In this document: in pieces, positions 6,498-56,717 of the stretch
Numbering within the stretch: the first letter of the stretch is position 1
Layout: each line of letters opens with the position of its first letter
Assembly: GCA_947166925.1 (NCBI GenBank)
Contig: CAMVGD010000001.1
Span: 41,574 to 105,573, forward strand
DNA length: 64,000 nt
Direction of reading: 5' to 3'
Origin: an uncultured Clostridia bacterium
GTDB lineage: Bacteria > Bacillota > Clostridia > Christensenellales > CAG-138
Made by a program: the position numbers and the translations under genes
The notes under the pieces: model-generated
The model's input: only the letters and a program-made list of their open reading frames with translations
What the model was told of the DNA's origin: nothing
Database searches by the model: none

Positions 6498-6509
6498 AAG
6501 GAGAACAAT

Positions 6510-41480: not shown

Positions 41481-41900
41481 ATGAATAAAAGATCTGTCGC
41501 TGCAATCGTTCTTGCCGCCGTCGCGCTGTGCCTGTCGGTCGCGGGACTGATCGTTGCGCTGCTGCCGAAGCAGGCAGCGGGGGACGTGCAGTACGTCATG
41601 TATCTCGGTACGAACGATAAGGATACGAACGAGCCGGTGTTCACGCCGGACGAAGCCAAAACGAAAGCGGAGGAGATCCTGCTCAAGCATGTCGGCGGCT
41701 GGACGATCCAGGAGGCGAACGGCGGCTGGGCAGACGGAGAGATGCTCTATCGCGAATACACGATCGTGATCTATCTGAGCGACACGAGCGCGGAAGCCGT
41801 TCACGCCGCTGCGGACGACCTGATCGCGGCGTTTCATCAGAGCTCCGTTCTGATCCAGAAAAACGTGACCGCGACCGAGTTCTATTACGGCAGACCGTAA
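41481..41900 (+). CDS. Small membrane-anchored or secreted protein (tentatively DUF3574-like)
   Basis: In-frame ATG at 41481 within track ORF 40956-41900. It has an N-terminal signal/anchor (VAAIVLAAVALCLSVAGLIVALL) followed by YLGTNDKD...GGWTIQEANGGW...EYTIVIYL. Confidence 0.5.
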   Translation: MNKRSVAAIVLAAVALCLSVAGLIVALLPKQAAGDVQYVMYLGTNDKDTNEPVFTPDEAKTKAEEILLKHVGGWTIQEANGGWADGEMLYREYTIVIYLSDTSAEAVHAAADDLIAAFHQSSVLIQKNVTATEFYYGRP

Positions 41901-41920
41901 GCGGTCCGACCGAAGCATAT

Positions 41921-41960
41921 CCGGCGCCGCGCGTTTTGCGGCGCCGGTATCCGGGTTTTC
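41921..41960 (+). terminator. Possible terminator (GC hairpin with a weak T tract)
   Basis: ccggcgccg (41921-41929) pairs with cggcgccgg (41939-41947), followed by tatccgggttttc. Confidence 0.4.
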
Positions 41961-42015
41961 ACGGACCGGAACGAATCATCAGATAACCCATAGCGGGAGA
42001 AAAAGGAGCAAAGCA

Positions 42016-42312
42016 ATGACGATTCAAAAAACCCAAAATGAAAAGGCGCTGACGATCGCCCTTGAAGGGCGGCTGGATACCTTGACCGCGCCGGAGCTGG
42101 AGGCGGTGCTGAACGACGCGCTTGCGGACGCGGAGGAGCTGACCTTCGATTTTGAGAAGCTCGATTACATCTCCTCGGCAGGTCTTCGCGTGCTGCTTGC
42201 GGCGCAGAAGACGATGAACCGGCAGGGGACCATGAAGGTGATCCATACGAACGAAATGATCCGGGAGATCTTCGAGGTCACCGGTTTTTCGGACATTCTG
42301 ACCGTCGAATGA
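42016..42312 (+). CDS. STAS-domain protein (second copy)
   Basis: 98 aa with FDFEKLDYISSAGLRVLL. Same length class and motif as 29145-29438. Confidence 0.85.
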   Translation: MTIQKTQNEKALTIALEGRLDTLTAPELEAVLNDALADAEELTFDFEKLDYISSAGLRVLLAAQKTMNRQGTMKVIHTNEMIREIFEVTGFSDILTVE

Positions 42313-42343
42313 CCGTTGCCCGGAAAAGGATAAAAAGTATTCC

Positions 42344-44380
42344 ATGAAGTGGCTGCGTCAACACATTACCGTCAAGAGCATAGCCGGCATCGTGCTGCTG
42401 CTGGTGCTGTTTTCCGTGGTCGTCGGCATCATCGGCTATCGGACCTTTACCGACGCGCTGCTGAATCAGTACGCAGAGGGCGCTTTTCTGACGGCGCAGA
42501 CGGCTGCTGAGCTCGTTGACGCCGATCAAATAGACGAATACGCCCAAAGCGGCGGCGTTACCCCTGCATACACGGAGGTCTGGGATCGGCTGGACCGTTT
42601 GTGCAACACCTCCGGGTCCACCTTCATCTATGTGATCGTGCCCGACCGGTCGGATTATCGGCATATCACCTTTCTCTTTTCCACCATCGACCACGACAGT
42701 TCATATACAAAGTACGAGTTCGGCTTCGTGCGGGACACCACCAACGACGAGTACCGCGAGAAATATCGCGCGCTCTACGAGCTGGAAGCGGACCGGGAAC
42801 TGGTGATCCGGGACAAGGGCAACATCGAGACCGATTCGCACATCACCGCCATGATCGGGCTTCCGGGGTCCGACGGCAGCGTGAAGGGGATCCTCTGCGT
42901 GCAGCGGCAGATGGACATCCTCGCCGGCGTACGCAGCACCTTCCTCAACAAGATCGCGCTTGCCGTCGTGACGCTGGTGCTGCTCGTGATCCTGGGACAG
43001 AGCTTATACCTGCATCGGGTGCTGCTGCATCCCGTCAACCTGATCACGGAGGAGGCGGCGCGGTTCTCCCGGGAGAATACGGCGTCCGTGCAGAAGCTGC
43101 AGAACGCCATCCGCAACAAGGACGAGATCGGGCAGCTGGCAAAGTCCATCGACACGATGGAGGAACAGATCGAGACCTACATCTCGGATATCACGCAGAT
43201 CACCGCCGAGCGGGAACGCATCAGCACGGAGCTGTCTCTCGCGACCCGCATTCAGGCGGCGTTCATCCCGCATCTGTTCCCGCCTTTCCCCGACCGACCG
43301 GAGTTCGCGCTTTACGCGTCCATGGATCCCGCCAAGGAAGTGGGCGGCGATTTCTTCGATTTCTTCCTGATCGACGAGGACCATCTGGGACTGGTCATCG
43401 CCGACGTGTCCGGAAAGGGCGTGCCGGCGGCGCTGTTCATGATGGCCTCCAAGATCATCCTGCAGAGCTGCGCCATGCTGGGGCACGGCCCGGCGGCGAC
43501 CCTGACCAAGACCAACGAGGCGATCTGCTCCAACAACCAGGAACAGATGTTCGTCACCGTATGGCTGGGGATCTTAGAGATCTCCACCGGCAGGCTCACT
43601 GCGGCAAACGCGGGGCACGAATACCCGGTGATCAAGGAGCCGGACGGCGACTTTGCCCTGCTGAAGGATAAGCACGGTCTTGTGATCGGCGGCATGAGCG
43701 GCGTCCGGTATCGGGAGTATGAGGTACAGCTGACGCCGGGAGCAAAGATCTTCGTCTATACGGACGGCGTGCCCGAAGCGAGCAACGCGGAAAACGAGCT
43801 CTTCGGTTCCGAACGCATGGTCGCCGCGCTGAACGACGCCAAGGACGAAGCGCCGGAGGCGATCCTGCGCAGCGTGCGCCGGGCGGTGGACGGCTTTGTG
43901 CAGGAGGCGGAGCAGTTCGACGACCTCACCATGCTCTGTCTTGAATATAAGGGTCCAAAGGCGGCGGCGCCCGTGAAGGAGCTGACCGTGGAAGCCACGG
44001 TCGAAAACATCTCCGCTGTGGCCGGGTTCGTCGAAGCGGAGCTGGACGCGGTCGACTGCCCGCCGAAGGCCAAGATGCAGATCGGCGTGGCGATCGACGA
44101 GATCATGGCGAACATCGCCCAATACGCCTACGCGCCGGGGACCGGTCCAGTAACCGTTCGGTTCGGATACGAGCAGGCGTCAAAAACGGCGACCCTGACC
44201 TTCCTGGACAAGGGCATGCCCTATAACCCTCTGGAAAAGAAAGACCCGGACGTGACCCTTTCCGCAGAGGACAGACCGATCGGAGGGCTGGGCATCTTTC
44301 TGGTGAAGAAGACCATGGACAGCATGGACTATGCATACAAGTTCGGACAAAACGTCCTGACGATACAGAAAAAGCTATAA
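42344..44380 (+). CDS. Membrane sensor-HAMP-PP2C phosphatase fused to an RsbW-like ATPase/kinase domain (second copy)
   Basis: Same architecture as 29435-31384: AKEVGGDFFDFF...ADVSGKGVPAALFM...NAGHEYP...VYTDGVPEA. C-terminal IDEIMANIAQYA, LDKGMPYNP and IGGLGIFLV. Confidence 0.85.
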   Translation: MKWLRQHITVKSIAGIVLLLVLFSVVVGIIGYRTFTDALLNQYAEGAFLTAQTAAELVDADQIDEYAQSGGVTPAYTEVWDRLDRLCNTSGSTFIYVIVPDRSDYRHITFLFSTIDHDSSYTKYEFGFVRDTTNDEYREKYRALYELEADRELVIRDKGNIETDSHITAMIGLPGSDGSVKGILCVQRQMDILAGVRSTFLNKIALAVVTLVLLVILGQSLYLHRVLLHPVNLITEEAARFSRENTASVQKLQNAIRNKDEIGQLAKSIDTMEEQIETYISDITQITAERERISTELSLATRIQAAFIPHLFPPFPDRPEFALYASMDPAKEVGGDFFDFFLIDEDHLGLVIADVSGKGVPAALFMMASKIILQSCAMLGHGPAATLTKTNEAICSNNQEQMFVTVWLGILEISTGRLTAANAGHEYPVIKEPDGDFALLKDKHGLVIGGMSGVRYREYEVQLTPGAKIFVYTDGVPEASNAENELFGSERMVAALNDAKDEAPEAILRSVRRAVDGFVQEAEQFDDLTMLCLEYKGPKAAAPVKELTVEATVENISAVAGFVEAELDAVDCPPKAKMQIGVAIDEIMANIAQYAYAPGTGPVTVRFGYEQASKTATLTFLDKGMPYNPLEKKDPDVTLSAEDRPIGGLGIFLVKKTMDSMDYAYKFGQNVLTIQKKL

Positions 44381-44395
44381 AAGGAGATTCCGAAA

Positions 44396-45076
44396 ATGAA
44401 GAAATTACTGACTGTTTTACTGATCGCCCTGCTGATCCTCAGCGCTGCGGCCTGCACTAAGAAGAATGAATCCGACGCTCCGGCGTCTTCCTCGGTCGAT
44501 CCGACCCAGTGGAAGACTCTGGGCGACGTCTGGGAGTATGAATTCTGGGGCTCCGTCGTCGAGGAAGGCACGTATATCCGGGCCTTCAAAGCGGAAGACG
44601 GATACTACCGCGTGGAGGCGGACGTCACGGAGGACGTGACGGAGAAGCTGGACGCCATCGACTTTTTCGACAAGACAGGGGAGGAGCAGGAAAAAGCGCT
44701 GATGAAGGATCTGCCCATCAAAACGATCATCAACCTTTCCGAGGTCCTGCTTTCTCAGAGCGATCTCGACACATTGGCGGGCAAGACCGGTCAGGAGCTT
44801 TTGGATATGGGCTTCGTGCCGCAGGGCAGCAAGGGCTTCAGCACGCAGGAGCAGCTCTCCTGGGCAACTTTGGAGAAGGGACCGTTCGTATATGAGGTTA
44901 CCTTCCAGGAATACGTGGACGTCGACGACGATCCCAACGTGGCGGCGGTCATCCGGCCGCTGACCGTGAAGAGCGTGACCTTTTCCGGCGTTTCCCAGTA
45001 CGCGACGGAAAAAGCGTTCGATATCAACGGCGGCAAATCGCTGGCGGACTATGAAGCAATGTTCAACGGGGACTGA
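44396..45076 (+). CDS. Hypothetical lipoprotein
   Basis: Signal peptide with lipobox LSAAACTK. It starts 15 nt after the previous gene, with a GGAG RBS. Confidence 0.65.
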   Translation: MKKLLTVLLIALLILSAAACTKKNESDAPASSSVDPTQWKTLGDVWEYEFWGSVVEEGTYIRAFKAEDGYYRVEADVTEDVTEKLDAIDFFDKTGEEQEKALMKDLPIKTIINLSEVLLSQSDLDTLAGKTGQELLDMGFVPQGSKGFSTQEQLSWATLEKGPFVYEVTFQEYVDVDDDPNVAAVIRPLTVKSVTFSGVSQYATEKAFDINGGKSLADYEAMFNGD

Positions 45077-45134
45077 TCCAAAATCTTAAACCATACCGTC
45101 GGCAGTGCGCTGCGGGCGGGGGACGGAAAGCGAC

Positions 45135-47042
45135 ATGAAGATAACGAAAGCGAAAAGAACAGGACTGCTGATCCTTGCCGCCGTGCTGGCGGTCTGCTGG
45201 ATCGGCTGCAATCGGGGGAGCCGGCAGGAGACGGCTGCGTCAGCCACTTCTTCCGCGTCTCCGACCGTTCCGGAACAGTCCCCGTCGGCAAAGGCGGAAC
45301 CGACCTCCGTTCCGGAACCTGCCGTCACGGCGGAACCGGCGGGACCGGATTACGGCGATCCCGGCTCGTGGGCGTACTTTGCCGAGGGCGAGGACAAGGA
45401 CGCGGACGTGTTCCTCATCTGCCCGTTGGTGGACACCCGGAGCGAGCGGAATGCTTACGATCTCAACGACAAGCTCAAGGAACGATTTGTCAACGCTCTG
45501 GATATGGAGAAAGGTATCTACGAGGATGTGGGGAGGCTCTATTCCCCCTTCTACCGGCAGATGTCCATGAACGCTTATCGGCTGCCCGAGCCCGAACGCG
45601 AAATGACCAGGGCGGTGGCATATGCCGATATTTCCGCCGCATTCCGCTGGTATCTCGATCATGAGAACAACGGCAGACCGCTGATCCTTGCCGGCTTTTC
45701 CCAGGGCGCCGAGATGTGTCTCGAGCTTATGAAGGAGTTCTTCGGGGATACGCCGGAGGGCGGCGCTTTGCGGGAGCGGCTGATCACCGTTTACGCCATC
45801 GGTTGGCGTGTGACGGAGGAGGATACCCGCGCCTATCCGCAGATCGTGCCCGCGCAGGGAGAAAAGGATCTCGGCACGGTGGTGAGCTTCGACTGCGAGG
45901 ACGGTTCTCTTCAGGAGACCATCATCATTCCGGCAGGCGTCAGGACCCTGTCCGTCAATCCGCTGAACTGGAGGACGGACGGCACCCCGGCGGATTGCTC
46001 TTTGAATCTCGGCGCGGTCATGAGCACGGGCGCGGAGCCCGTTCCCGGTCTGTGCGGCGCATACATCGGCGACCGGGGAGAGCTCGTGGTGACGGACGTG
46101 GAGGCGGGGGACTATCCTCCGGGACTGGATCTGTTCCCGACAGGCGCATACCACGTCTATGATTATCTGTTCTTCTTTACAAACCTGAAACAGAACATCG
46201 CCGATCGCGCAGCCGCCTATTTCGAGGCGCAGCGCGGCGCATGTCTGGGACAGCTTTTGCAGGACCTTTTGACGGCACGCGAAACGCCGAACGCCGATGA
46301 CGCGCAAAGGATCGATGCGGATCTTGCCGCGGTCAAAGCGGCCGCCGAGGCGGATTATCCCGTGGCAAAGGCGATCGCGGATCACTGGCGGCAGGTGTAC
46401 CTCGATCCGGCGTATACCCTATGCTGCCACGGCGAAGGAAAGCTGGCGCCGGAGCTTGACGGCGCAGGCATTCCCGACGAACGCACGCACGCGTTCGTGG
46501 TCCTGGGCTATGAGCTTCAGAACGGGGAGATGACGGACGAGCTCAGGGGACGCTGCGAAGCGGCGGCCGCGGCAGCCAGATCCTTCCCGAATACGATCCT
46601 CGTCTGCTCCGGCGGCGCGACCGGACCCAACAATCCGGACGGGCATACCGAAGCAGGGCTTATGAAGCAGTATCTTACGGAGGTATGCGGCATCGACGCC
46701 GACCGGATCTTTACGGACGAGCGGGCGTTGACCACGGCGGAGAACGCCGTCAACACCTTCGCCATTCTGAAGGAGCAGGGGGTCGAGACCATGACCATCG
46801 TGACCTCCTCCTACCATCAGCGGTGGGGGCAGGCTTTGTACAACGCACTGGCGGCGATCTATGAGCAGCAGTACGGCTACCATGCCCGGCTGATCGGCAA
46901 CTATTGCTTCGACACCGAGCCTTCCGTGGACGCCTTTTTGCACGACGACTGGTTCGCCGTCTATCAGCTGGGAGAGATCCTGAACCTCCCCGGCGAGCAG
47001 ATGAACCGGTTCCGCGACGTATACGCCCTTCTCGGACAGTGA
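45135..47042 (+). CDS. Secreted or lipoprotein fusion of a DUF3089 (alpha/beta-hydrolase-like) domain and a DUF218/YdcF-like domain
   Basis: ATG 45135 (MKITKAKRTGLLILAAVLAVCWIGC). DUF3089-like WAYFAEGEDKDADVFLICPLVD...YSPFYRQ...GFSQGAEM. C-terminal VVLGYEL...VCSGGATGP...TEAGLMKQYL...TTAENA...IVTSSYHQRW. Confidence 0.65.
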   Translation: MKITKAKRTGLLILAAVLAVCWIGCNRGSRQETAASATSSASPTVPEQSPSAKAEPTSVPEPAVTAEPAGPDYGDPGSWAYFAEGEDKDADVFLICPLVDTRSERNAYDLNDKLKERFVNALDMEKGIYEDVGRLYSPFYRQMSMNAYRLPEPEREMTRAVAYADISAAFRWYLDHENNGRPLILAGFSQGAEMCLELMKEFFGDTPEGGALRERLITVYAIGWRVTEEDTRAYPQIVPAQGEKDLGTVVSFDCEDGSLQETIIIPAGVRTLSVNPLNWRTDGTPADCSLNLGAVMSTGAEPVPGLCGAYIGDRGELVVTDVEAGDYPPGLDLFPTGAYHVYDYLFFFTNLKQNIADRAAAYFEAQRGACLGQLLQDLLTARETPNADDAQRIDADLAAVKAAAEADYPVAKAIADHWRQVYLDPAYTLCCHGEGKLAPELDGAGIPDERTHAFVVLGYELQNGEMTDELRGRCEAAAAAARSFPNTILVCSGGATGPNNPDGHTEAGLMKQYLTEVCGIDADRIFTDERALTTAENAVNTFAILKEQGVETMTIVTSSYHQRWGQALYNALAAIYEQQYGYHARLIGNYCFDTEPSVDAFLHDDWFAVYQLGEILNLPGEQMNRFRDVYALLGQ

Positions 47043-47105
47043 TCCGCTTTCCGCAGGATCGCACAGAACAGACACGACCATCAGTTCACAAAGGAGACCG
47101 AACCC

Positions 47106-48326
47106 ATGGCAGAAGAAAAACGATTCACCAAAGCCACATGGCAGATCATGGAGCAGCTTTTGGAGGTGGACAGCCTCGACGACGCGCTCTCCGGCAGTCT
47201 GGAAATCATTGTCAAGACGCTGAACAGCGAAGCAGGAGCGATCTGGCTTCTGGATACCAAGACGGATCGGCTGACCCCGATGTTCCACATCGGTCCGGCG
47301 GACATTTCCAACATCACGGTGGAAAACGGGCTCGGCATCGAGGGTGTCGTCACCAAGACCGGCAAGTCCGTGATCGTGGAGGATGCAGTGAACGATTCGC
47401 GCTTCGAGGGCTCCGTGTTCGACGACAACGGGCTCGTCACCAAGACGATGATCTGCGTGCCGCTGAATAACCTCCACGACGTGATCGGCTGCGTGCAGAT
47501 CGTCAACAAGAAGGACGGCAGTCTGTACGACGCCGAGGAGCTGAAGCTGTGCGAGCGGATGGCGTCGCTGGCCGCGATCACGATCGACGAAAAGGGACTG
47601 ATCGTCGATCTCGGCGAGCAGAAAGAGATCCTGGCGACGCTTCGGAACGTCACGAAGGAGTTCCCCTCCGGCGACGGCGTGCTGCGCGTTTTAAAGGGGA
47701 TCAATCTCGACATCTACAAGAACGAGTTCGTCGTCGTTCTCGGCGAATCCGGCTGCGGCAAGTCCACCATGATGAACATCGTCGGCGGCATGGACTTTCT
47801 GACCGACGGCACGCTAACGGTCGAGGGGAAGGATTTTTCGCATCCGTCCGACGCCGAGCTGACGAAGTACCGCCGCGAGTATATCGGCTTCATCTTCCAG
47901 TCCTATAACCTGATGCCGAACCTCACCGCGCTCGAAAACGTGCAGTTTATCGCGGAGCTTGTGAAGGATCCCATGGACGCGGCGGACGCGATCGCGAAGG
48001 TCGGACTTTCCGAACGCGCCAACAACTATCCCGGTCAGATGTCCGGCGGTCAGCAGCAGCGCGTGTCCATTGCGCGCGCGATCGTGAAAAAGCCGAAGCT
48101 GATCCTTGCCGACGAGCCGACGGCGGCGCTCGACTATACGACGAGCATCGAGGTACTGTCTGTCGTGGAGGATATCGTGCGCAAGCAGGGCGCGACAGTC
48201 ATGATGGTCACGCACAACCCCGAGATCGCCAAGATGGCGGACCGCGTGGTCAAGGTGCGCAACGGCAAGATCGCAAGCATCAAAAAGAATCTGCATCCCG
48301 TTCACGCGGAAGAACTGGTTTGGTGA
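47106..48326 (+). CDS. GAF-domain-fused MacB/LolD-type ABC transporter ATP-binding protein
   Basis: AAGGAG RBS. The N-terminal ~165 aa are GAF-like (AGAIWLLDTKTDRL...GIEGVVTKTGKSVIVEDA...MICVPLNNLHDVIGCVQIVNK). Then GESGCGKST, MSGGQQQRV and ILADEPT. Confidence 0.85.
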   Translation: MAEEKRFTKATWQIMEQLLEVDSLDDALSGSLEIIVKTLNSEAGAIWLLDTKTDRLTPMFHIGPADISNITVENGLGIEGVVTKTGKSVIVEDAVNDSRFEGSVFDDNGLVTKTMICVPLNNLHDVIGCVQIVNKKDGSLYDAEELKLCERMASLAAITIDEKGLIVDLGEQKEILATLRNVTKEFPSGDGVLRVLKGINLDIYKNEFVVVLGESGCGKSTMMNIVGGMDFLTDGTLTVEGKDFSHPSDAELTKYRREYIGFIFQSYNLMPNLTALENVQFIAELVKDPMDAADAIAKVGLSERANNYPGQMSGGQQQRVSIARAIVKKPKLILADEPTAALDYTTSIEVLSVVEDIVRKQGATVMMVTHNPEIAKMADRVVKVRNGKIASIKKNLHPVHAEELVW

Positions 48327-48332
48327 TCTGTC

Positions 48333-50987
48333 TTGAAAAAAACGCAGCTGAAAGACGCATTACGCAATATATGGAAGCAGAAGGTCTCCTTTCTGTCGAT
48401 CATTGTGATCGCGCTTTTGGGCGTGACCACCTTTTTGGGTATCGGATATTCGGCGGCGGCATTGCGGAAGAACGCATCGACGGCATATAACCGGCAGAAC
48501 TACCGCGATATCGAAGTCATCTCCACGCGCCTATTAACGTCGGAGGACCTGGACTGCATCCGCGCGCTTGACGGTGTGAAGGACGTTGAGCCGGTCTGGC
48601 AGACCGCCGCGAACGCTTACATCGGCAGCGAAAAGCAGGTCATCAACATCATCACCGCAACGGAGCGGATCAATCTCGTATCGATGATCGAGGGGCGCAT
48701 GCCGAAAGACGCTTCGGAATGCGCGATCGAACAAAGCGTCGCAGAGGAAGCCGGGTGGAAGGTCGGCGACGAGATCGAATGGGCGGAAATGACCGACGTT
48801 ACCGGACAGTTTTTTCTCGGCGCGGATCCGTTTACGATCGTCGGTGTCGTTGCGCATCCCGATCACGCAAGCAAAACCGTGCCGGAGACGCCCTATATGA
48901 TCGTCAGCCCGGATCGGTTCGATCGGATAGCCATGGAAAACTGCTGCATGAAGGCGGAGATCGTCGTTGAGAAGGCGGCGGACGTCAACCGGTTTACCAA
49001 GGCATACGATGAGACCGCAGCGACGGTTTTGCAAAAGATCGAGGAGATCTCCGCGGAACGGATCGCGATCCGCGACGCACAGCTCAAAGAACAGGCGCTG
49101 CAGCTGATCGAGCAGGCGGAAACGGCGCTTGCGGAAAACAGAGAGCAGCTGACGACGGGAACCCAGGCAAGGGATACCCTGCTCGGCATAATCGTGCAGG
49201 CGGAGCAGATCGCAGGCGGCATAGACGGAATGAACGCCGCCGTCGCTTCTCTGCGGGAGTTCAGGCAGAAGATCGAAGCAGAGACGTCCGAGCTGAACGA
49301 CGCCGAAGCGATGCTTGCGCAGACGGAAGCGATGATCAAAGAATTGCGCGATCAGCTGGACAACATGGAACCCGGCCGCTGGTTCATCTTTGACGGGCAC
49401 GGCAACGCAAGCTTTGTACAGCTGATCATCGGCAGCGGAAACCTCGAGAGCCTCGAAATGACCTTCTCTCTGCTGTTCGTTCTGGTCGGCGCGCTCGTGA
49501 TCTACGCCACGATCAGCAAGATGATCGACGAGCAGCGCACGCTGGTCGGGACCACCAAGGCGCTCGGCTTCTTCAATCGGGAGATCTTTGCAAAGTACCT
49601 GCTGTTCGGACTGTCCGCAACGGTGCTCGGCACGCTGTTCGGCGTCCTGCTTGCGCGGTTCGTCCTTGAACCGTTCATTCTGAAAGGGTACGGCGCGTAC
49701 TACACCTATGATACCACGGCGCCGACGGTGACGGTCGGACCGACGCTGATCGTGCTGCTTGCGGGGATCGTCCTTGCCGTCGGCGCGATCACGTTCGCCT
49801 GCTACCGGCTGATGCGCACGCCTGCGATCCGGCTGATGCAGCAGGCGGTCCCCAAGGGCAAAAAGGGAAGCGCAAAAGGCGGAAAGCGGCTTCTGTCGCT
49901 GTATTCGCGCCTGATCCTTCTGAACATCCGCACCGACCTTCGGCGCGTGATCGTGACGATCGTAAGCGCGGCGGGCTGCTGCGCGCTGATCGTGATCGGC
50001 TTTACACTGAAGGCAGCGGTGAACGGCGCGGTCAAAAACCAGTATTCTTCCGTCGTGCATTACGACGCGAAGGTGCAGTATGCATACGGCGAGGAGATCG
50101 AAGCGGAGCTTAAAAAGTCCGGCGCGGAATGCGTGCCGCTGTACGACGTATTCATCACCTATCGGATTAAGGACAATCAGGTGGGAGAGCTGCTCTGCGG
50201 CGATATTGAAGCCATCGAATCCATGTACCGCCTGAACGACTGGCGCACCAAGGACCCGATCGAACCGACCGACGAGGGCATTCTGATCCAGCGGCGTCTG
50301 GCGGAGATCGATAAGCTGGACGTCGGAAGCGAGTTTCAGATCACTGTAGGTGGCGCGAAAACGGCGAAGGTCCGTGTGGCGGGCATCTTTGAAAACTACA
50401 TCGGTCGCTCCATGGTGATGAGCAGCGGGTATTACGCGTCGCTGTTTGGCCAGGAACCGACGCCCAATTCCTACCTGATCCGCCTGAACGACGCGGACGA
50501 GGAGGCGCTGCGTACGCGGCTCAAAATGACTTCGGGCTTTACGAGCTACACGCCGGCGTCGTCGGACCGGGCCATGTTCGACTCCGCGACCTCGGTCGTC
50601 AACAGCATCGTCGTGCTGTTCATCGTCCTGGCGGCGATCATGGCGGGCGTGGTGCTGACCAATCTGACGAACATCTATGTCATGCAGAAGAAGCGCGAGC
50701 TCGTTGTCATGCGCATCAACGGCTTTACGGTCAAAGAGGTCATCGGATACTGCACGCGGGAAACGATCCTGACGACGATCGCGGGCATCGTTCTGGGCAT
50801 CGCGCTCGGCTCCGGGATCGCCTATCGCATCGTGCGTGCGATGGAACAGGCGTTCATCCGGTTCGACCGCAGCGTCAGCCCGATCGCATGGCTGTACGGC
50901 GCGCTGATTACGGTGCTGTTCACGATCATCATCAATGTGATCGTTCTTCGGAAAGTTAAACACCTGAAGCTGACGGACGCCGCCTGA
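48333..50987 (+). CDS. FtsX-family ABC permease, double-module (884 aa)
   Basis: The TTG start is supported by N-terminal colinearity with the paralog (MKKTQLKDALRNIWKQKVSF). It has TM bundles at both ends and a large extracytoplasmic domain with a short coiled-coil segment. Confidence 0.85.
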   Translation: MKKTQLKDALRNIWKQKVSFLSIIVIALLGVTTFLGIGYSAAALRKNASTAYNRQNYRDIEVISTRLLTSEDLDCIRALDGVKDVEPVWQTAANAYIGSEKQVINIITATERINLVSMIEGRMPKDASECAIEQSVAEEAGWKVGDEIEWAEMTDVTGQFFLGADPFTIVGVVAHPDHASKTVPETPYMIVSPDRFDRIAMENCCMKAEIVVEKAADVNRFTKAYDETAATVLQKIEEISAERIAIRDAQLKEQALQLIEQAETALAENREQLTTGTQARDTLLGIIVQAEQIAGGIDGMNAAVASLREFRQKIEAETSELNDAEAMLAQTEAMIKELRDQLDNMEPGRWFIFDGHGNASFVQLIIGSGNLESLEMTFSLLFVLVGALVIYATISKMIDEQRTLVGTTKALGFFNREIFAKYLLFGLSATVLGTLFGVLLARFVLEPFILKGYGAYYTYDTTAPTVTVGPTLIVLLAGIVLAVGAITFACYRLMRTPAIRLMQQAVPKGKKGSAKGGKRLLSLYSRLILLNIRTDLRRVIVTIVSAAGCCALIVIGFTLKAAVNGAVKNQYSSVVHYDAKVQYAYGEEIEAELKKSGAECVPLYDVFITYRIKDNQVGELLCGDIEAIESMYRLNDWRTKDPIEPTDEGILIQRRLAEIDKLDVGSEFQITVGGAKTAKVRVAGIFENYIGRSMVMSSGYYASLFGQEPTPNSYLIRLNDADEEALRTRLKMTSGFTSYTPASSDRAMFDSATSVVNSIVVLFIVLAAIMAGVVLTNLTNIYVMQKKRELVVMRINGFTVKEVIGYCTRETILTTIAGIVLGIALGSGIAYRIVRAMEQAFIRFDRSVSPIAWLYGALITVLFTIIINVIVLRKVKHLKLTDAA

Positions 50988-51022
50988 CCGAACGGCACGG
51001 CGTTCGCAGAGGGGGAAAGCAT

Positions 51023-54000
51023 ATGAAGCAAACACAGATCAAAGATGCTTTGCGGAACATCCGAAAACTGCAGATCTCATTCTGGTCGATCGTCGTGATC
51101 GCCGCGCTCGGCGTGACGATCTTTCTCGGCGTCGACTACGCTGCGGCTGCGCTCCGAAAAAACGCCACCGTCTATTATCGGGATGCGGGATTCCGCGATG
51201 TTGAGATCATTTCCACCATGCTGCTTTCCGGAGAGGATATGGACGTCATCCGAAACACGGAGGGCGTGACGGACGTCGAGGGCGTTTATATGACCTCCGC
51301 CAAGGTGACGTCGAACGACATCCGTAAGGACGCGTATGTGATCTCCTTGACGGAACGGATCAACATTCCGTCCGTATATGAAGGGCGTCTGCCGGAAAAG
51401 GACGGCGAATGCGCCGTCGAACAGCGGCTGATGAACCAGATGGGGTGGAAGGTCGGCGATACGATCGCGGTCACGAGCGCCGAAGGCGCGACGCCGCAGT
51501 ACCTGAAAGCCGATTCGTTTGTCATCTGCGGCGCGATCCTGCATCCGGATCACGCCTGCAACAGCATCCCCGAAACGCGTTACATTATCGTGACGCCCGG
51601 GGCGTTCGATGCGGAAGCGCTGGACGGCTGTTATATGAAGGCGGAGATCATGGCGGACCGCCCGATCGACATGAACCGTTACGAAGCCGAATACCGGAAG
51701 GCGACGGTTGTCGTGCGCGAACGGATGGAAGCGGCAGCCGGAACCTATGCGCCGCTTCGCGAGGCGTCGGTCAAGGCGCAGCTCGACGAGAACCGCCAGA
51801 AGCTCGACGACGCCGAAGCGGAGCTCGGGAACGGCCGTGCGGAGCTCGACGACGGCTGGAAGCAGCTTGCGGAGGGCGAACAACAATACGAAGACGGCGT
51901 AAAGCAGGCGGAGGACGCGCGGGCGCAGCTGGACGAGGCAAAGCAGAAGCTCGACGACGCCGAACAGCAGCTTCGGGACGGACGTGCGGAGCTGGACGCC
52001 GCAAAGGCGGAGCTTGAGGCGGGCAAGGCACAGCTTGATTCGGCGAAAAAGCAGCTTGATTCGGCAAACCGACAGCTCGTTTCCGGCTGGAACACGATCG
52101 AGGACGTCAAGACGCAGATCCGGAACAAGCTGCATGCCGGGCTTGACGACGTCATCGGCGAAGATTCCTCGCAATGGATCCACTGGGCGGATCCGCTGGA
52201 GGCGAACCCGAACAGCTCGGGCGTTTCCGCGAGCGATTTCCGGATCACGGATCAGTTGACGGTCAATTTCGGCGCATCGCTGTCCGGCAAGATCAATCAG
52301 CTTATGAACACGGTGCAGATCCCGGACCGCGTGCTGCGCAAAGCGTTTGAAAAGCTCGGCGGCGAGGGCGAATACGATCCCGAAGTCGCGCGCAAGCTCC
52401 TTGCCGACCGCATTGCGTCGCTTGCGGGCGAGTATCAGTCGCAGTACGACGCGCTCGCCGACGGATGCACCAAGTGGGACAACGGGCACGAGACCTATCT
52501 TTCGGGACTTCGGCAGTACCGCGACGGACTTGCAAAATACGAGAGTGCGCTTAAGCTGTATCAGGAGGGCGAGGCGCAGTACGCCGAGGGACTTGCGCAA
52601 TATGAGGACGGACTTCGGCAGTACAACGACGGGGAAGCGCAGTATGCGCAGGGGCTCATCGACCTTGAAACCGGCCGTAAGGAGCTCGACGACGCCCGCG
52701 CAAAGCTCGAGGACGGCGAACGGCAATACGCGGACGGACTCACACGGTACAACGACGGAAGGGAAGCGCTTGAGAAGGCGCAGAAACGCATCGACGGGCT
52801 CGGTCCGTGCAAGTGGATCGTGACCGACTGCTTCGGGAACGTCGGTTTCGTGCAGGCCGGGACTGCCGCCGACAACCTGAAAAGCATGGAGATGACCTTT
52901 GCGCTCCTGTTCATTCTGGTAGGCGCGCTCGTCATCTATGCGACCGTCAGCAAGATGGTCGACGAACAGCGCAGGCAGATCGGGACAACGAAAGCGCTCG
53001 GCTTCTTCAACGGCGAGATTTTCACAAAGTATCTATTGTTCGGGATCTCGGCGACGCTGCTCGGCTGCGTGATCGGTCTGCTGATCGCACGGTTCGGGAT
53101 CCAGAGATTCATCACGAACGGCTATAATCTCTATTTCGATTACAATCTTAAGAAACCCGCAATGGTCGCGCTTCCGACGGTGATCGTGTTCTTCGCAGGC
53201 GTTTTACTGGCGTTCTTTTCCATCTGGTTTGCCTGCGTGAAGCTGCTGCGCACACCGGCGATCAGACTGATGCAGCAGTCGGTTCCGAAGGGCAGGAACA
53301 AGGCGGCGTCCGGCAGAAAACCCACGCTGTCGCTGTATTCGCGCCTGATCCTTCTGAACATCCGGACGGATTTCCGCCGCGTGCTCGTCACCGTGATCAG
53401 CGTCGCGGGCTGCTGCGCGCTGGTTATCATCGGCGTTACGCTCCGGAACGCGGTCAGCAATTCGCTGGATCTGCAGCTCCATGAGGTCATCCGCTACGAC
53501 GGCATGGCGTCGATCGATCCGGAAGCGAACGCCGACGCGGCGGACAGCGCCGCGCAGATCCTTGCGGACACGGGCGCAAAGGGCTGTCCCGTTCAGAAAA
53601 AGAACGTCACCGTGCACATCAAGGATCTCGACATGCTGGAGCTGTACGTCGGAGATCTTGCGGAGATCGGCAAAATGATCCTGCTCGCCGACGTTAAAAC
53701 CGGCGACCCGATCCCGCCGACCGACGAAGGCATTCTGGTTTCGAGACGGTTTTCCGAAAACTATCAGGTCAGCGTCGGCGATCCGATCGAGATTTCCTTG
53801 AACGGTACGGAGACCGTGCAGACAACCGTCGCAGGCATCTTCAATGTTTACGTCGGCAGAACGATGTATATGAGCGACAATTGCTTCCGGAAGCTGTTCG
53901 GACGCGATCCGGAAACGAACGCGTTTCTGATCCGGCTCGACGGCGCGAAGCTCGATCCGCTGCTTGATCGGCTCAGTACAGTCGAGGGGTATGAGAGCTA

Positions 54001-54439
54001 CGAGCGCTCCGATTCCTTCAAATCGCTGTTTGAAACGGCGACCAGCGTTATGAACATGGTCGTGCTGCTGTTCATCTTCATGGCGGCGGTCATGGCGGGC
54101 GTCGTGCTGATGAACCTGACCAACATCTATATCATGCAGAAGCTGCCGGAGCTGACGATCATGCGCATCAACGGCTTTACGGTCCGGGAGACCATCGGCT
54201 ATGTCCTGCGCGAAACGGTCGTCACGACTGCGGCGGGCATTCTGCTCGGCGTCGGGCTCGGCACGGTCATCGGCTACAAGATCGTATGCTCGCTGGAGCA
54301 GAGCTTCGTGCAGTTCGACCGCCGTCCGTCCGTCGTCGCGTGGATCGTCGGCGCATTGATGACGATCGCATTCACGGTCATCGTCAACGCGATCGCGCTG
54401 AAGAAGGTCAAGAAGCTGAAGCTGACGGACGCCGCCTGA
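51023..54439 (+). CDS. FtsX-family ABC permease, double-module with a coiled-coil insertion of about 300 aa (1138 aa)
   Basis: MKQTQIKDALRNIRKLQISF. Long repeats such as QLDEAKQKLDDAEQQLRDGRAELDAAKAELEAGKAQLDSAKKQLDSA and YRDGLAKYESALKLYQEGEAQYAEGLAQYEDGLRQYNDGEAQYAQG. Confidence 0.85.
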   Translation: MKQTQIKDALRNIRKLQISFWSIVVIAALGVTIFLGVDYAAAALRKNATVYYRDAGFRDVEIISTMLLSGEDMDVIRNTEGVTDVEGVYMTSAKVTSNDIRKDAYVISLTERINIPSVYEGRLPEKDGECAVEQRLMNQMGWKVGDTIAVTSAEGATPQYLKADSFVICGAILHPDHACNSIPETRYIIVTPGAFDAEALDGCYMKAEIMADRPIDMNRYEAEYRKATVVVRERMEAAAGTYAPLREASVKAQLDENRQKLDDAEAELGNGRAELDDGWKQLAEGEQQYEDGVKQAEDARAQLDEAKQKLDDAEQQLRDGRAELDAAKAELEAGKAQLDSAKKQLDSANRQLVSGWNTIEDVKTQIRNKLHAGLDDVIGEDSSQWIHWADPLEANPNSSGVSASDFRITDQLTVNFGASLSGKINQLMNTVQIPDRVLRKAFEKLGGEGEYDPEVARKLLADRIASLAGEYQSQYDALADGCTKWDNGHETYLSGLRQYRDGLAKYESALKLYQEGEAQYAEGLAQYEDGLRQYNDGEAQYAQGLIDLETGRKELDDARAKLEDGERQYADGLTRYNDGREALEKAQKRIDGLGPCKWIVTDCFGNVGFVQAGTAADNLKSMEMTFALLFILVGALVIYATVSKMVDEQRRQIGTTKALGFFNGEIFTKYLLFGISATLLGCVIGLLIARFGIQRFITNGYNLYFDYNLKKPAMVALPTVIVFFAGVLLAFFSIWFACVKLLRTPAIRLMQQSVPKGRNKAASGRKPTLSLYSRLILLNIRTDFRRVLVTVISVAGCCALVIIGVTLRNAVSNSLDLQLHEVIRYDGMASIDPEANADAADSAAQILADTGAKGCPVQKKNVTVHIKDLDMLELYVGDLAEIGKMILLADVKTGDPIPPTDEGILVSRRFSENYQVSVGDPIEISLNGTETVQTTVAGIFNVYVGRTMYMSDNCFRKLFGRDPETNAFLIRLDGAKLDPLLDRLSTVEGYESYERSDSFKSLFETATSVMNMVVLLFIFMAAVMAGVVLMNLTNIYIMQKLPELTIMRINGFTVRETIGYVLRETVVTTAAGILLGVGLGTVIGYKIVCSLEQSFVQFDRRPSVVAWIVGALMTIAFTVIVNAIALKKVKKLKLTDAA

Positions 54440-54523
54440 CCGGATGTCACGGCGTTCGCAGAGAAAAAGGATACAAAGCAAGGCAGCGCAGGACTGAATG
54501 CCCTGCGGTGAACGCAAACGGAC

Positions 54524-54556
54524 AAGGGGCGAAGCCTTTCGGCTTCGCCCCTTTTG
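54524..54556 (+). terminator. Rho-independent terminator ending the 42.0-54.4 kb operon
   Basis: aaggggcgaagcc-tttc-ggcttcgcccctt followed by ttgc. Confidence 0.7.
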
Positions 54557-54769: not shown

Positions 54770-55351
54770 TTCCGCACGTTCTTCATCGCTGTCATCGTAC
54801 AAAACCGGTTATGATGACCGGGAAACAGCTATTATTCCGGAGACAAGGCGGATCTGCTGCTTCCCGAGCCGCAGAGGATTTTGCCGGACGGCGTCCTTGC
54901 CGTCGGAAAGCCCACGATCGTGATCCAGCTCGCCGGAAGCGCCATGGACCTTTCCGCGGCGCAGGAAAAGGCGGACGCCGTACTCCTCGGCTGGTATCCG
55001 GGCGCAGGCGGCGGAAGGGCGGTGGCAAAGCTGCTGTTCGGAGAGGTCTCTCCCTCCGGAAAACTGCCGGTCACGTTCTGCCGCAACGAGGCGCTTTCCG
55101 AGATGCCGGACTTCACGGACTATGCCATGACCGGAAGGACGTACCGATACTACCGCGGCGAACCGCTCTATCCCTTCGGCTACGGATTGAGCTACGGCGC
55201 CTGCGAGGTGACCGCTCTTTCGGCGGATCGGGAAAAGGCTGCGGTCAGGATCGTCAACCGGGGACCGCGGGATACCGACGAGGTGCTTGAGCTGTATCTA
55301 AAGGACGAGCAGAGTCCTTACGCGACGCCTGAAAATGTCGGTATATATTGA
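54770..55351 (+). pseudogene. Glycoside hydrolase family 3 remnant (C-terminal portion, truncated at both ends and frameshifted)
   Basis: PGNSYYSGDKADLLLPEPQ...AVGKPTIVIQLAGSAMDL...WYPGAGGGRAVAKLLFGEVSPSGKLPVTF...YRYYRGEPLYPFGYGLSYG are GH3 C-terminal motifs. TGA TGA lies just upstream in frame, and there are GH3-like scraps (FFIAVIV, GYDDRE) in other frames. The frame stops inside the fibronectin-like domain. Confidence 0.65.
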
Positions 55352-55376
55352 TTATCGTCCTGTTTTCCGGTATACT
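55328..55376 (+). promoter_or_regulatory. Promoter-like 49-nt repeat, copy 1 (partner at 59119-59167), upstream of the histidine kinase
   Basis: TTGATT (55348-55353), a 17-nt spacer, then TATACT (55371-55376). It shares cctgaaaatg, attgattatcg and tgttttc blocks in register with copy 2 (36 of 49 identical). Confidence 0.4.
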
Positions 55377-55442
55377 GTATTTTATCGGGTCGTCGGATCG
55401 GAACGCCGAAAACCGGAGCATGACAGAAGGGAGCGCAGGCAT

Positions 55443-56717
55443 ATGACCGTCAATTATAACACGTTTGCTGCGATCGCGCCGCTGCTGCTGCTTCTGATCG
55501 GACTGTCGGTCACGGTGATGATCGATCCGTATATCCGGCGGGAGCATCGGCGGGTCATGCTGATCATCGCGGCGCTGCTCGTGACGCTGATTGCACAGAA
55601 TGTTCTGGACTTTTGGTTAGAGCAGGACAGCACGCAGCGCACGGCGAGGACGATCCTCGGCATCTACGGGTATTCCGTTCGTCCGGCGGTCCTTGTGCTG
55701 TTTATGTACCTGTTCGGTACAAAGCGCAGATTCTGGCCTTTCTGGACGCTGGTCGGCGTCAATGCGCTGATCTATTCGACGGCGCTGTTTTCCGGCATCA
55801 GCTTTTCCATGGATGAAACCAATCACTTCATTCGCGGACCGCTGGGCTACAGCTGTCATATCGTCAGCGGCATCTTGCTGTTCTGCCTGCTTTGGATTAC
55901 GATCCGCGCGTTTCGCAAGATCAAAAGAGCGGAAATGTGGATCCCGCTTTTGAACGCGGTGCTGATCATTGCCTGCGTTCTGATGGATTCCGTATTCGCA
56001 ACAAACCTGCGTTATCCGGTCACTTTTCTGACTGTCGGCATTGTGATCAGCACGGTGTTCTATTATATCTGGCTGCATCTGCAGTTCGTACGCGCGCATG
56101 AGCGCGATCTTATGGCAACGCAGCGCATCCGGATCATGATGACGCAGATCCAGCCGCACTTCCTGTTTAACGCGCTCAACACCATCCGCGCGCTGTACGC
56201 AAAGGATCCGCCCATGGGAGATCGCATCCTGGAAGATTTCAGCACATACCTCAGGCAGAATCTGGAAACGCTGAACCAGACCGAGCTGATTCCGATCAAA
56301 AAGGAATTGGAGCACACGCGGCTGTATGCGGAGATCGAAACGCTCCGTTTCCCGCAGATCCGTGTGGAGTACCGGATCGAGGACGATGCGTTTTCGATCC
56401 CCGCGCTGACGATCCAGCCGCTGGTGGAGAACGCGATCCGGCACGGCGTCCGAAGCTGCAAGGAAGGACTGGTGACCGTTTCCACCGCGCGCGAGGCGGG
56501 CGGGCACCGGATCACGATCGAGGACAACGGCGTCGGTTTCGACCCGACCCGGGAGGCGGGCGACGAGGAATCCCATATCGGAATTCAGAATGTCAGAGAA
56601 CGCATCGAACAGATGTGCGGCGGAACGATGATCCTGAGAAGCGAGATCGGAAAGGGCACCGACGTCACGCTGCTCATCCCGGATGCGGCGGAGAAAGAAA
56701 AGGGGAGCAAACCGTGA
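55443..56717 (+). CDS. LytS/YehU-type sensor histidine kinase (His_kinase + HATPase) with a polytopic N-terminal sensor
   Basis: ATG 55443. About 6 TM segments, then MTQIQPHFLFNALNTI (H-box of the LytS family), LVENAIRHG and DNGVGFD. Confidence 0.85.
   Translation: MTVNYNTFAAIAPLLLLLIGLSVTVMIDPYIRREHRRVMLIIAALLVTLIAQNVLDFWLEQDSTQRTARTILGIYGYSVRPAVLVLFMYLFGTKRRFWPFWTLVGVNALIYSTALFSGISFSMDETNHFIRGPLGYSCHIVSGILLFCLLWITIRAFRKIKRAEMWIPLLNAVLIIACVLMDSVFATNLRYPVTFLTVGIVISTVFYYIWLHLQFVRAHERDLMATQRIRIMMTQIQPHFLFNALNTIRALYAKDPPMGDRILEDFSTYLRQNLETLNQTELIPIKKELEHTRLYAEIETLRFPQIRVEYRIEDDAFSIPALTIQPLVENAIRHGVRSCKEGLVTVSTAREAGGHRITIEDNGVGFDPTREAGDEESHIGIQNVRERIEQMCGGTMILRSEIGKGTDVTLLIPDAAEKEKGSKP

Follow-up and report, generated by a model that had tools for sequence, protein, structure and literature searches.

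A seven-gene block from an uncultured Clostridia bacterium of the gut or rumen may well encode a signal-gated type VII (MacB/FtsX-type) ATP-binding cassette (ABC) mechanotransmitter that acts on the cell envelope and responds to two inputs, a ligand bound by a GAF domain and the phosphorylation state of a STAS protein; we put the probability of this reading at roughly 55%. The block lies in a stretch of 64,000 nucleotides (nt), referred to here as the window, that covers positions 41,574 to 105,573 of contig CAMVGD010000001.1 (assembly GCA_947166925.1). Its genes encode, in this order, a STAS protein, a membrane-bound PP2C-kinase fusion, a predicted lipoprotein, a DUF3089-DUF218 protein, an ATPase in which a GAF domain precedes the nucleotide-binding domain (NBD), and two FtsX-type permeases (Table 1). 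Full-text searches of one literature library found no paper on a GAF domain fused to a MacB/FtsX-type (type VII) ABC system, and judging from their sequences the proteins belong to a sensor-fused, partner-switch-linked and stalk-bearing type VII ABC family that differs from YbbAP, BceAB and FtsEX.

A GAF domain fused to a MacB-type ATPase

The N-terminal domain of the ATPase, described as GAF-like in the original prediction, does score as GAF in Pfam, with residues 23-161 matching GAF_2 (4.6e-13), GAF (4.1e-10) and GAF_3 (2.3e-8), all beyond the Pfam cut-offs. The rest of the protein is an ABC NBD (ABC_tran, 1e-33) that matched the NCBIfam MacB, DevA and LolD models at 1e-58 to 1e-63 and the MacB NBD in the PDB at 3e-56. 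All catalytic motifs (Walker A, signature, Walker B, H-loop) were invariant across 127 homologs, and members of the subfamily end in a conserved C-terminal tail, N..P..A.EL.W. When an AlphaFold2 (AF2) model of the ATPase (predicted local distance difference test, pLDDT, 86.7; predicted template modeling score, pTM, 0.83) was searched with Foldseek, the MacB NBD was the best match, and the NBDs of BceA, Spr0694, MJ0796, LolD, YbbA, HrtA and YtrE were also found.

NBDs swamped the Foldseek search with the whole model, and the GAF domain was assessed by comparing a GAF-only sequence profile of the family against the PDB. GAF domains that bind cyclic nucleoside monophosphates (cNMPs) took the first 18 places, led by CyaB2 (5.8e-34), PDE5 (1e-28), a chain of 5W10 (6e-27) and PDE2A (5e-26), with scores down to 5e-23 and with the GAF of the HD-GYP protein PmGH, PDE6 and PDE10A also among them. 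GAF domains with non-nucleotide functions (PtsP, Nlh1, DevS, NifA, fRMsr and NreA) scored at least 10 orders of magnitude weaker, at 1e-14 or worse. A search with the GAF domain by itself likewise matched GAF domains of the cyclic-nucleotide kind. Four of the five positions of the NKFDE motif are kept (N134, K135, Y141 and E145), and the final Glu is replaced by L146, a Leu throughout the family. The motif definition and the residues of CyaB2 GAF-B that contact cyclic AMP (cAMP), namely R291, T293, I308, D356 and N359, were taken from published work (PMC4411481). Mapped onto the ATPase through a HMMER alignment, these contacts correspond to A43, A45, F60, F105/D106 and N108, respectively, so that the stacking aromatic (F60) and N108 are retained. 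These results place the domain in the nucleotide-binding (cNMP-type) clade of GAF domains.

The GAF core is well conserved, with 33 invariant positions among close relatives (alignment A9). Two proteins of the same NBD subfamily, with the same EL.W tail, carry another sensor in its place, a PAS domain in P0128 and a response-regulator receiver (REC) domain in P0218. This suggests that cytoplasmic sensors swap modularly on this type of motor, and because PAS and REC domains take the place of GAF in sister proteins, GAF would likewise serve as a sensor. In P0136, of 621 amino acids (aa), the GAF-ABC part runs on at its C-terminus into an FtsX-like membrane segment, whose end bears the KLKLTD motif common to the permeases; this is either a natural motor-permease fusion or an artifact of assembly or gene calling.

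In some related loci (designated by L numbers, with coordinates of the respective contigs), genes for nucleotide-messenger enzymes stand beside the GAF-ABC gene. A PAS-class III cyclase is encoded 13 nt upstream in L088 (5660-7051; also in L089), in L095 a gene with a RelA_SpoT domain (5723-6772) precedes it by 1 nt, a 7TM-GGDEF-EAL gene adjoins it in L094 (12684-14957), and a second cyclase homolog was found next to it in L133 (2572-3144). The presence of such enzymes hints at the class of ligand that the GAF domain might bind.

Tandem FtsX permeases with coiled-coil stalks

Both permeases, called as FtsX proteins of 884 and 1138 aa in the original prediction, gave two Pfam FtsX matches each. 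The same prediction placed transmembrane (TM) bundles at both ends of each chain; this was contradicted by hydropathy and by the AF2 model of permease 2 (pLDDT 81.8), in which the helices are arranged as 1+3+1+3, a TM helix, an outer domain and three TM helices, twice over. Each permease thus has 8 TM helices and two extracytoplasmic domains, and its halves are connected on the cytoplasmic side by a linker that is disordered in permease 2 (residues 746-783, with low pLDDT at 756-767); two coupling helices are seen in the model of permease 2. The E. coli YbbP structure 9GE6 was the best Foldseek match of this model (E = 4e-16), in an alignment spanning the whole chain, and was followed by BceB in third place, LolE/LolC, HrtB, MacB, Spr0695 and YtrF. 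Isolated outer domains of LolE, LolC and YknZ matched at E ~1e-5, as befits a Porter/Sabre-type fold. No FtsX structure was present among the 50 best fold matches of permease 2, the NCBIfam FtsX models scored the permeases at 5e-4 to 5e-3, far under their cut-offs, and MacB_PCD of Pfam was weak in homologs and gave no match at E <= 0.01 in the window permeases.

With an NBD of the MacB/LolD/FtsE subfamily with intact motifs, and with 4-TM FtsX units that hold an outer domain between TM1 and TM2, the system has the features of a type VII ABC system. The earlier MacB/FtsX-type assignment therefore stands, since the NBD models, the FtsX units and the fold matches agree.

The first outer domain of both permeases contains a coiled-coil hairpin as an insertion. 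For the second permease, about 300 aa of coiled coil had been noted at 51.75-52.75 kb; the coiled coil is present, although it is formed by two helices (51686-52801) on either side of a tip domain, and permease 1 carries a hairpin as well. At ~0.15 nm per residue, the modeled stalk of permease 2 would measure ~18-23 nm. The DNA that encodes it has a 21-nt (heptad) periodicity, as detected by Tandem Repeats Finder. Relatives differ widely in this respect: the permease of L081 (820 aa) has no stalk, and the longest stalks exceed 500 residues. The permeases of L084 (11227-14901, 1224 aa) and L085 (8876-12172, 1098 aa) differ only by whole repeat blocks of the EDGRRELEEKR type, and the other genes on these two contigs are 97-100% identical. 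Because the two permeases differ by whole repeat blocks alone, stalk length varies within a population.

Permeases 1 and 2 are paralogs (41-48% identical), with 51-78% identity in the cytoplasmic linker and TM regions and 35-46% in the outer parts. The C-terminal half of permease 1 is nearer to the second than to the first permease of L096, suggesting exchange between the paralogs. At their 3' ends the two genes are near-identical over ~25 nt of coding sequence and a further ~25 nt of flank (50960-51012 and 54412-54465; CTGAAGCTGACGGACGCCGCCTGACCG..CACGGCGTTCGCAGA), with proteins that are ~45% identical; either a tandem duplication or gene conversion has left this trace, or the 3' sequence is itself a conserved element. 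Across 102 permeases, C130 of permease 2 (51410-51412), in an ECA[IV]E motif of outer domain 1, was invariant, and C596 (52808-52810), in a CKW motif at the foot of the return helix, was nearly so. The two could be paired at the stalk base, functionally or through a disulfide, and this would be unusual for an anaerobe.

Comparison with L096 yielded 92% identity for the ATPase, 84% for the DUF3089-DUF218 protein, 74% for the STAS protein and 35% for the lipoprotein. The permeases were 48-62% identical overall, with 34-57% in the outer domains and tip and 52-75% in the TM regions and linker. Exposed parts therefore evolve much faster than the motor, as the outer domains and the lipoprotein show against the ATPase. 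Such a contrast in rate is consistent with diversifying pressure on surface parts, for example from phage, host or competitors.

Linkage to partner-switching genes

The two genes that open the block supply the components of a partner switch: the first encodes a STAS protein whose motif includes a phosphorylatable serine, and the second combines a PP2C phosphatase with an RsbW-like kinase. The STAS protein is of the RsbV/SpoIIAA type according to TIGR00377 and reached only 1e-3 against the mlaB model of NCBIfam. In the 678-aa fusion, Pfam detected SpoIIE (1.4e-50), HATPase_c_2 (8.6e-22) and HAMP (4e-4). The phosphatase motifs GGDF, DVSGKG and DD.T are visible on inspection of the sequence, as are the kinase motifs, and the PP2C region matched the SiaA model of NCBIfam at 1.5e-20. 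Domains orthologous to those of the fusion are present in L084, L093, L095, L099-101 and other related loci. No sigma-factor domain was found in the genes at 29.1-59 kb of the window or among the called genes of related loci.

The relatives listed by a first homolog search were all at least 90% identical, and a profile of distant members was used to reach other lineages. In an exhaustive search of 1.84 billion cluster representatives, ~15 clusters at 50% identity among ~255,000 ABC matches (E <= 1e-10) consisted of full-length GAF-ABC proteins. The profile search brought in 120 further GAF+ABC clusters, 53-89% identical to the window ATPase. Source labels, on which the taxonomy rests, read "MAG: Clostridia bacterium" (MAG, metagenome-assembled genome) or Lachnospiraceae. 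The family of stalked permeases is broader, with members of 1077-1506 aa in MAGs of Clostridia, Oscillospiraceae and Lachnospiraceae, and these also adjoin plain NBDs of 233-249 aa.

To describe the neighborhood, 97 GAF-ABC loci, drawn from twelve context look-ups and 80 metagenome loci (GAF-only alignment A9), were screened by tblastn with the window proteins; 40 of them, with at least 3 kb of upstream and at least 6 kb of downstream sequence, were taken as informative. The census is skewed toward relatives with at least 67% GAF identity, many contigs are short, and related loci are not independent samples. As a control, we used 80 loci of MacB-type NBDs without GAF, identified by Walker A/B patterns among the matches listed for the full-length GAF-ABC alignment. 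In every lineage looked up, and in the census wherever the flank sufficed, the GAF-ABC gene was accompanied by at least one stalked tandem permease. This pair of genes is the constant part of the module.

Of the 40 informative loci, 27 contained a STAS ortholog (42-88% identical), as did 8 of the 18 clusters defined at 90% GAF identity; in 18 loci the ortholog was the gene immediately upstream, at a distance of 300-450 nt from the start of the ATPase. Twelve of the 40 had PP2C and 16 had the RsbW-like kinase, while none of the three occurred in any of the 80 control loci. Since the window's other STAS protein (29145-29432) is merely 37% identical to the module STAS ortholog of L096, it is one specific STAS orthogroup that accompanies the module. 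STAS-bearing GAF-ABC loci showed at least eight gene orders. Besides that of the window, these included STAS|GAF-ABC; STAS-PP2C/kinase-GAF-ABC, as in L099-L101 (with a GAF identity of 97%, a single permease and no hydrolase gene); STAS-kinase-PP2C-GAF-ABC; STAS-kinase-GAF-ABC; and GAF-ABC-permease-STAS, with or without PP2C/kinase after it. With gene orders so varied, simple inheritance of one arrangement is unlikely. The frequency of STAS, its many gene orders and its absence from controls indicate that the link of GAF-ABC to partner switching, as read from gene content, is real and not a local accident. The phospho-switch association suspected in the original prediction is thereby upheld, and homologs are not scattered, as synteny is conserved though not universal.

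Other elements of the window locus are features of its lineage. Two permeases, which the original prediction had put in its description of the system, were found only in the near clade and in L095, and most relatives have one. The lipoprotein, DUF3089(-DUF218), DUF3592 and the kinase-regulator pair recur in the near clade only, in shuffled positions.

Partner-switch domains were also seen in other combinations close to GAF-ABC genes. One L084 gene (4951-6717) encodes a MATE-family transporter joined in the same chain to an RsbW-like HATPase_c_2 domain, another partner-switch part wired to a membrane transporter, and this gene adjoins those for PP2C-kinase, STAS and GAF-ABC. A STAS domain fused to an AMP-binding (adenylate-forming) enzyme is encoded in L086 (14903-16762) and also in L121, followed by a membrane acyltransferase (Acyl_transf_3); in L086 these genes come directly after those for GAF-ABC, the permease and a free STAS protein.

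Relation to known systems

The closest known counterpart is YbbAP-TesA of E. coli, in which two YbbA subunits and one YbbP chain of 10 TM helices assemble with a bound hydrolase (PDB 9GE6-9GE8; PMC12646458). In both systems the permease is a pseudo-dimer made of one chain, in which two FtsX units each bring an outer domain; an NBD of the MacB type and an adjoining hydrolase gene are further common features. They differ in that YbbP links its halves by TM5-6, whereas the window permeases have 8 TM helices and a cytoplasmic linker, and in that YbbP lacks a coiled-coil stalk and YbbA a GAF domain, both of which are present in the window system. The hydrolase is the SGNH protein TesA in E. coli and a DUF3089-DUF218 protein that is not conserved in the family in our case, and sequence identity of the permeases to YbbP is ~10%.

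MacAB-TolC, LolCDE and Spr0694-0695 of S. pneumoniae share the NBD subfamily and the 4-TM FtsX unit with its outer domain between TM1 and TM2. In these systems, however, separate 4-TM chains dimerize, and there is neither a fused sensor nor a stalk in the permease; the alpha-hairpin of MacAB-TolC is on a separate adaptor, MacA. We know of no link of any of them to partner switching. FtsEX with EnvC, PcsB, CwlO or RipC resembles the window system, known from sequence and models, in belonging to the type VII mechanotransmission class and in having a long extracytoplasmic coiled coil. There, the coiled coil is on the partner protein, FtsX is a 4-TM homodimer and FtsE lacks GAF, whereas here the coiled coil is inside the permease, and no hydrolase-activator gene was detected in the operon by Pfam or NCBIfam searches of its proteins. 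BceAB systems have 10 TM helices, a single outer domain between TM7 and TM8 and a BceRS partner, in contrast to the 8 TM helices, two outer domains and PF06580 kinase of the window.

For the regulatory parts, SiaABCD of Pseudomonas is a partner-switching system with an output other than a sigma factor. In HenR-All4160 of Anabaena, too, the cluster has no sigma factor gene and brings together a PP2C phosphatase, a kinase of the RsbW-like type and a STAS protein that can be phosphorylated on serine, and the partner switch acts on a biosynthetic enzyme instead of a sigma factor (bioRxiv 10.64898/2026.04.08.717354). The window system is distinguished by its proposed output, a type VII ABC ATPase, and by the fusion of phosphatase and kinase in one membrane sensor. 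A single-domain STAS protein encoded with an ABC system is also known from MlaFB, where MlaB controls the ATPase MlaF (PMC7367683). MlaB has no phospho-switch context and MlaFEDB is not type VII, whereas the window STAS is of the RsbV/SpoIIAA type. Like the cNMP-binding GAF domains of Anabaena CyaB2, PDE2, PDE5, PDE6 and PDE10, the window GAF keeps the N-K-[F/Y]-[D/E] part of NKFDE; those are tandem domains fused to a cyclase or phosphodiesterase, and the present one is single and fused to an ABC NBD.

Proposed mechanism and alternative explanations

By analogy with YbbAP, two GAF-ABC copies would dock on one single-chain pseudo-dimeric permease via its two conserved coupling helices (2:1). 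The short- and long-stalk permeases may be alternative partners of one shared ATPase, as the linker, coupling helices and TM regions are their best conserved parts. ATP binding and hydrolysis would move the two outer domains and the coiled-coil hairpin, which might extend ~8 or ~20 nm outward, a distance sufficient to penetrate or span the wall. The work would be done on an envelope component, not in pumping a solute out of the cytoplasm. One input would be a small ligand, most likely a cyclic or other signaling nucleotide, at the N-terminal GAF domain. The other would be the phosphorylation state of the STAS protein, written by the PP2C-kinase fusion, whose extracytoplasmic domain and HAMP may serve to read a cue from outside the cell or from the envelope, and the STAS protein could act directly on the ATPase as MlaB does on MlaF. 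In the window lineage, the job would most likely resemble that of YbbAP-TesA, with a hydrophobic, membrane-anchored envelope molecule extracted for, or presented to, the tethered DUF3089-DUF218 hydrolase and the lipoprotein.

Several points weigh against this mechanism. The Arg of CyaB2 that contacts adenine N1 is replaced by Ala, and the equivalent of Thr293 is Ala in the window protein and Thr in most relatives. Because both base-contact equivalents are Ala, cAMP or cyclic GMP (cGMP) as the ligand is in doubt; the GAF ligand may not be either of them, or there may be no ligand at all. No cyclase gene was detected in the window by similarity to the L088 cyclase. In a closed NBD dimer, the N-terminal domains may be too distant from each other for a GAF dimer like that of phosphodiesterases. 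Ten of the 18 GAF-ABC clusters have no STAS gene nearby, and for this reason STAS is not obligatory. As the hydrolase and lipoprotein are confined to the near clade, a YbbAP-TesA-like job, to judge by their distribution, is not ancestral in the family.

Among other explanations, it is conceivable, though we think it unlikely, that the system is a MacB- or BceAB-like pump that provides resistance or immunity, its targets being antimicrobial peptides or a toxin made by the cell itself, with a stalk that guides compounds through the wall and signaling genes that only tune it. The NBD is nearest to those of MacB, DevA, LolD and BceA, BceB ranked third among the permease fold matches, and a histidine kinase-response regulator pair is a conserved neighbor. 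MBOAT and MprF-C-like genes adjoin the module in L084, a nonribosomal peptide synthetase (NRPS) with a terminal reductase is encoded 3.3 kb upstream in the window, and one homolog bears the Joint Genome Institute (JGI) label of an antimicrobial peptide transport permease. However, no homolog of the NRPS was found in related loci, the NRPS comes with its own STAS/PP2C-kinase pair, the neighboring kinase is of the LytS-like PF06580 type and not BceS-like, and the topology of 8 TM helices with two outer domains is unlike the 10 TM helices and one outer domain of BceB. One helical hairpin, moreover, cannot build a conduit like the MacA hexamer. A regulator of wall enzymes in the manner of FtsEX, in which the hairpin is a built-in EnvC/PcsB/CwlO coiled coil that activates a hydrolase or transpeptidase, seems more doubtful still. 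Its appeal lies in the type VII class and the long coiled coil that leaves the first outer domain, in the highly variable, repeat-built stalk length expected of a wall-spanning ruler, in a YkuD L,D-transpeptidase-like gene in the L096 cluster, and in the DUF218 domain, whose SanA/ElyC family is linked to envelope biogenesis. Yet no CHAP, LytM, NlpC/P60 or amidase domain was found in the operon proteins or related-locus genes, FtsX structures were absent from the 50 best fold matches, and the permease is a tandem pseudo-dimer rather than a 4-TM FtsX.

Least probable, in our judgment, is that the regulators act elsewhere, for example on an unlinked sigma factor, and are merely co-transcribed with an ordinary constitutive ABC transporter whose GAF is a ligand-free dimerization or stability domain. 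Several STAS and PP2C genes are present in the organism, three of the latter in the window, so some adjacency is expected; the key base-contact residues of cAMP-binding GAF domains are not conserved, and STAS is missing from 10 of 18 clusters. Chance adjacency, on the other hand, is countered by the single STAS orthogroup that follows GAF-ABC through at least eight gene orders and is found in 0 of 80 controls. Likewise, the 33 invariant positions of the GAF core and its replacement by PAS and REC in sister proteins point to a sensor role. We keep to the two-input, signal-gated mechanotransmitter as our preferred reading.

A bolder version of the preferred reading, which we hold only tentatively, describes an inside-out device in which a second messenger at the GAF domain and a directly bound STAS protein time the strokes of an ATP-driven, ~20-nm rod that carries a tip through the wall. 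Motion of the rod would change a property of the cell surface or activate a partner located in the wall, and the fast-evolving stalks of variable repeat length would be under phage or host pressure.

Locus boundaries, accessory proteins and neighboring genes

The open reading frame (ORF) listing bore out the one-strand arrangement of the block, with gaps within the 6-63 nt range given earlier (31, 15, 28, 63, 6 and 35 nt in order). The strong terminator that had been placed after it was also borne out, as a GC-rich hairpin of 12 base pairs (bp) followed by TTTTG. Our consensus scan missed this site because its T-run has just 4 T. RNAfold gave -43 kcal/mol for 41900-42015, the region with the upstream hairpin. 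Within the block, the consensus scan found no promoter-like site on the + strand and a single + strand terminator-like site, a weak one inside permease 1 (48409-48426); terminator-like sites overall were not commoner than in shuffled sequences. With small gaps, flanking hairpins and no internal + strand promoter-like site, a single transcript for the seven genes is plausible. An Rfam scan of the whole window, leader included, revealed no riboswitch or other RNA family. Identity as a defense system was dropped, since PADLOC models gave nothing beyond generic ABC-ATPase and coiled-coil matches.

The original prediction had put a lipoprotein and a DUF3089-DUF218 fusion upstream of the ATPase. Both are present; they are, however, accessory parts limited to the near clade, and the start of the latter probably needs correction. 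Homologs of the lipoprotein, 34-75% identical, were found in L096, L103-105, L115 and L129. The fusion scored 3.2e-42 for DUF3089, with GFSQG as its nucleophile elbow, and 2.4e-18 for DUF218 in Pfam, and a PDB sequence search with the protein gave no match. Its start is probably the ATG at 45135, where a GAGGA ribosome-binding site is found that is lacking at the GTG at 45105. In the near clade, DUF3089-DUF218 genes at times lie 3' of the permeases, and they are missing from most loci of the family.

Table 1. Features of the window that bear on the GAF-ABC system, with positions in the window
Feature	Position	Strand	Description	Evidence
Second STAS gene	29145-29432		STAS	Pfam 3.6e-13
Second PP2C-kinase fusion	29435-31384		HAMP-PP2C-HATPase_c_2 fusion	
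NRPS	31413-38669		2418 aa, terminal reductase; immediately after second STAS/PP2C-kinase pair	
DUF3592 protein	39382-40419	+	Membrane protein, recurrent neighbor in the near clade	Pfam; homologs inside cluster in L096, L099-101, L106, L130 and others
5' hairpin	41921-41947	+	GC-rich, likely terminator 3' of upstream DUF3574 gene; 5' operon boundary	Sequence, RNAfold
Seven-gene block	42016-54439	+	STAS gene to permease 2 gene	ORF listing
STAS protein	42016-42312	+	98 aa, single domain, anti-sigma-antagonist type, DYISSAGL phosphorylatable-serine motif	Pfam STAS 1.2e-14, TIGR00377 2.8e-20
PP2C-kinase fusion	42344-44380	+	678 aa, membrane sensor: TM1, ~170-aa extracytoplasmic domain, TM2, HAMP, PP2C (SpoIIE), RsbW-like HATPase_c_2 kinase	Pfam, TM prediction
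Lipoprotein (predicted)	44396-45076	+	226 aa, no known domain, near-clade accessory	Signal peptide and Cys; weak lipoprotein-signal matches
DUF3089-DUF218 protein	45105-47042	+	Predicted lipoprotein; Ser/Thr/Pro/Ala-rich linker, DUF3089 alpha/beta-hydrolase domain, DUF218 (SanA/YdcF-like)	Pfam
GAF-ABC ATPase	47106-48326	+	406 aa; GAF at residues 23-161 (47172-47588), MacB-type NBD at ~176-406	Pfam, AF2, Foldseek
Permease 1	48333-50987	+	884 aa, 8-TM tandem FtsX pseudo-dimer; TTG start 6 nt 3' of ATPase stop	Pfam, TM prediction
Permease 1 hairpin	residues ~222-348	+	Coiled coil, ~127 residues, no tip, stalk ~8 nm	
Permease 2	51023-54439	+	1138 aa, architecture as permease 1	Pfam, AF2
Permease 2 stalk, outgoing	51686-52156 (residues 222-378)	+	Unbroken 157-aa helix	AF2
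Permease 2 tip domain	52157-52435 (residues 379-471)	+	93 aa	AF2
Permease 2 stalk, return	52436-52801 (residues 472-593)	+	122-aa helix	AF2
3' hairpin	54524-54556	+	Intrinsic-terminator-like, ends operon	Sequence
Sensor kinase and regulator	55335-57523	+	Multi-TM His_kinase (PF06580) sensor kinase and OmpR-type response regulator	Pfam
5TMR-LYT-PP2C	57573-59000	-	Membrane phosphatase	Pfam

Three genes and a hairpin separate the NRPS gene from the seven-gene block. Export of the NRPS product, or immunity to it, had been put forward as a role of the system, and we rejected this link because no NRPS homolog was detected in related loci, either by similarity or among their called genes, and because the NRPS follows a STAS/PP2C-kinase pair of its own (29145-31384). 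The organism seems to use STAS and PP2C-kinase pairs as leading cassettes for differing outputs. Downstream of the block, the region between the terminator and the histidine kinase gene (54832-55330) holds a fragment with only the C-terminal domain of glycoside hydrolase family 3, which gene calling on L090, an identical contig, gave as a gene of 135 aa, and which is probably a gene remnant. The kinase and regulator have orthologs (61-75% identical) 5' of the module in L096/L097, L107, L116, L129 and L133, and the pair could control its transcription. The 5TMR-LYT-PP2C protein is a possible second phosphatase for the STAS protein. In L093, a PP2C gene of the same architecture is divergent beside STAS-GAF-ABC, and its PP2C domain is 49% identical to that of the operon's PP2C-kinase.

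Implications for envelope biology in Clostridia

Type VII ABC systems such as MacB, LolCDE, FtsEX, BceAB and YbbAP are central to envelope biology, and little is known of how the cell turns their motors on and off from within. In the present family, which is common in gut and rumen Clostridia, the regulators are in plain view, as a cNMP-type GAF on the motor, as PAS and REC domains on sister proteins, and as a linked STAS/PP2C/kinase switch. Control of the motor is therefore directly testable in vitro. If the two-input mechanism is correct, partner switching would be extended to a new class of output, and a wall-length coiled-coil stalk within a permease would represent a new way for Gram-positive cells to act across the wall. 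The bolder version, if it holds, would provide the first partner-switch output onto an ABC motor and the first mechanotransmitter gated by a sensor domain.

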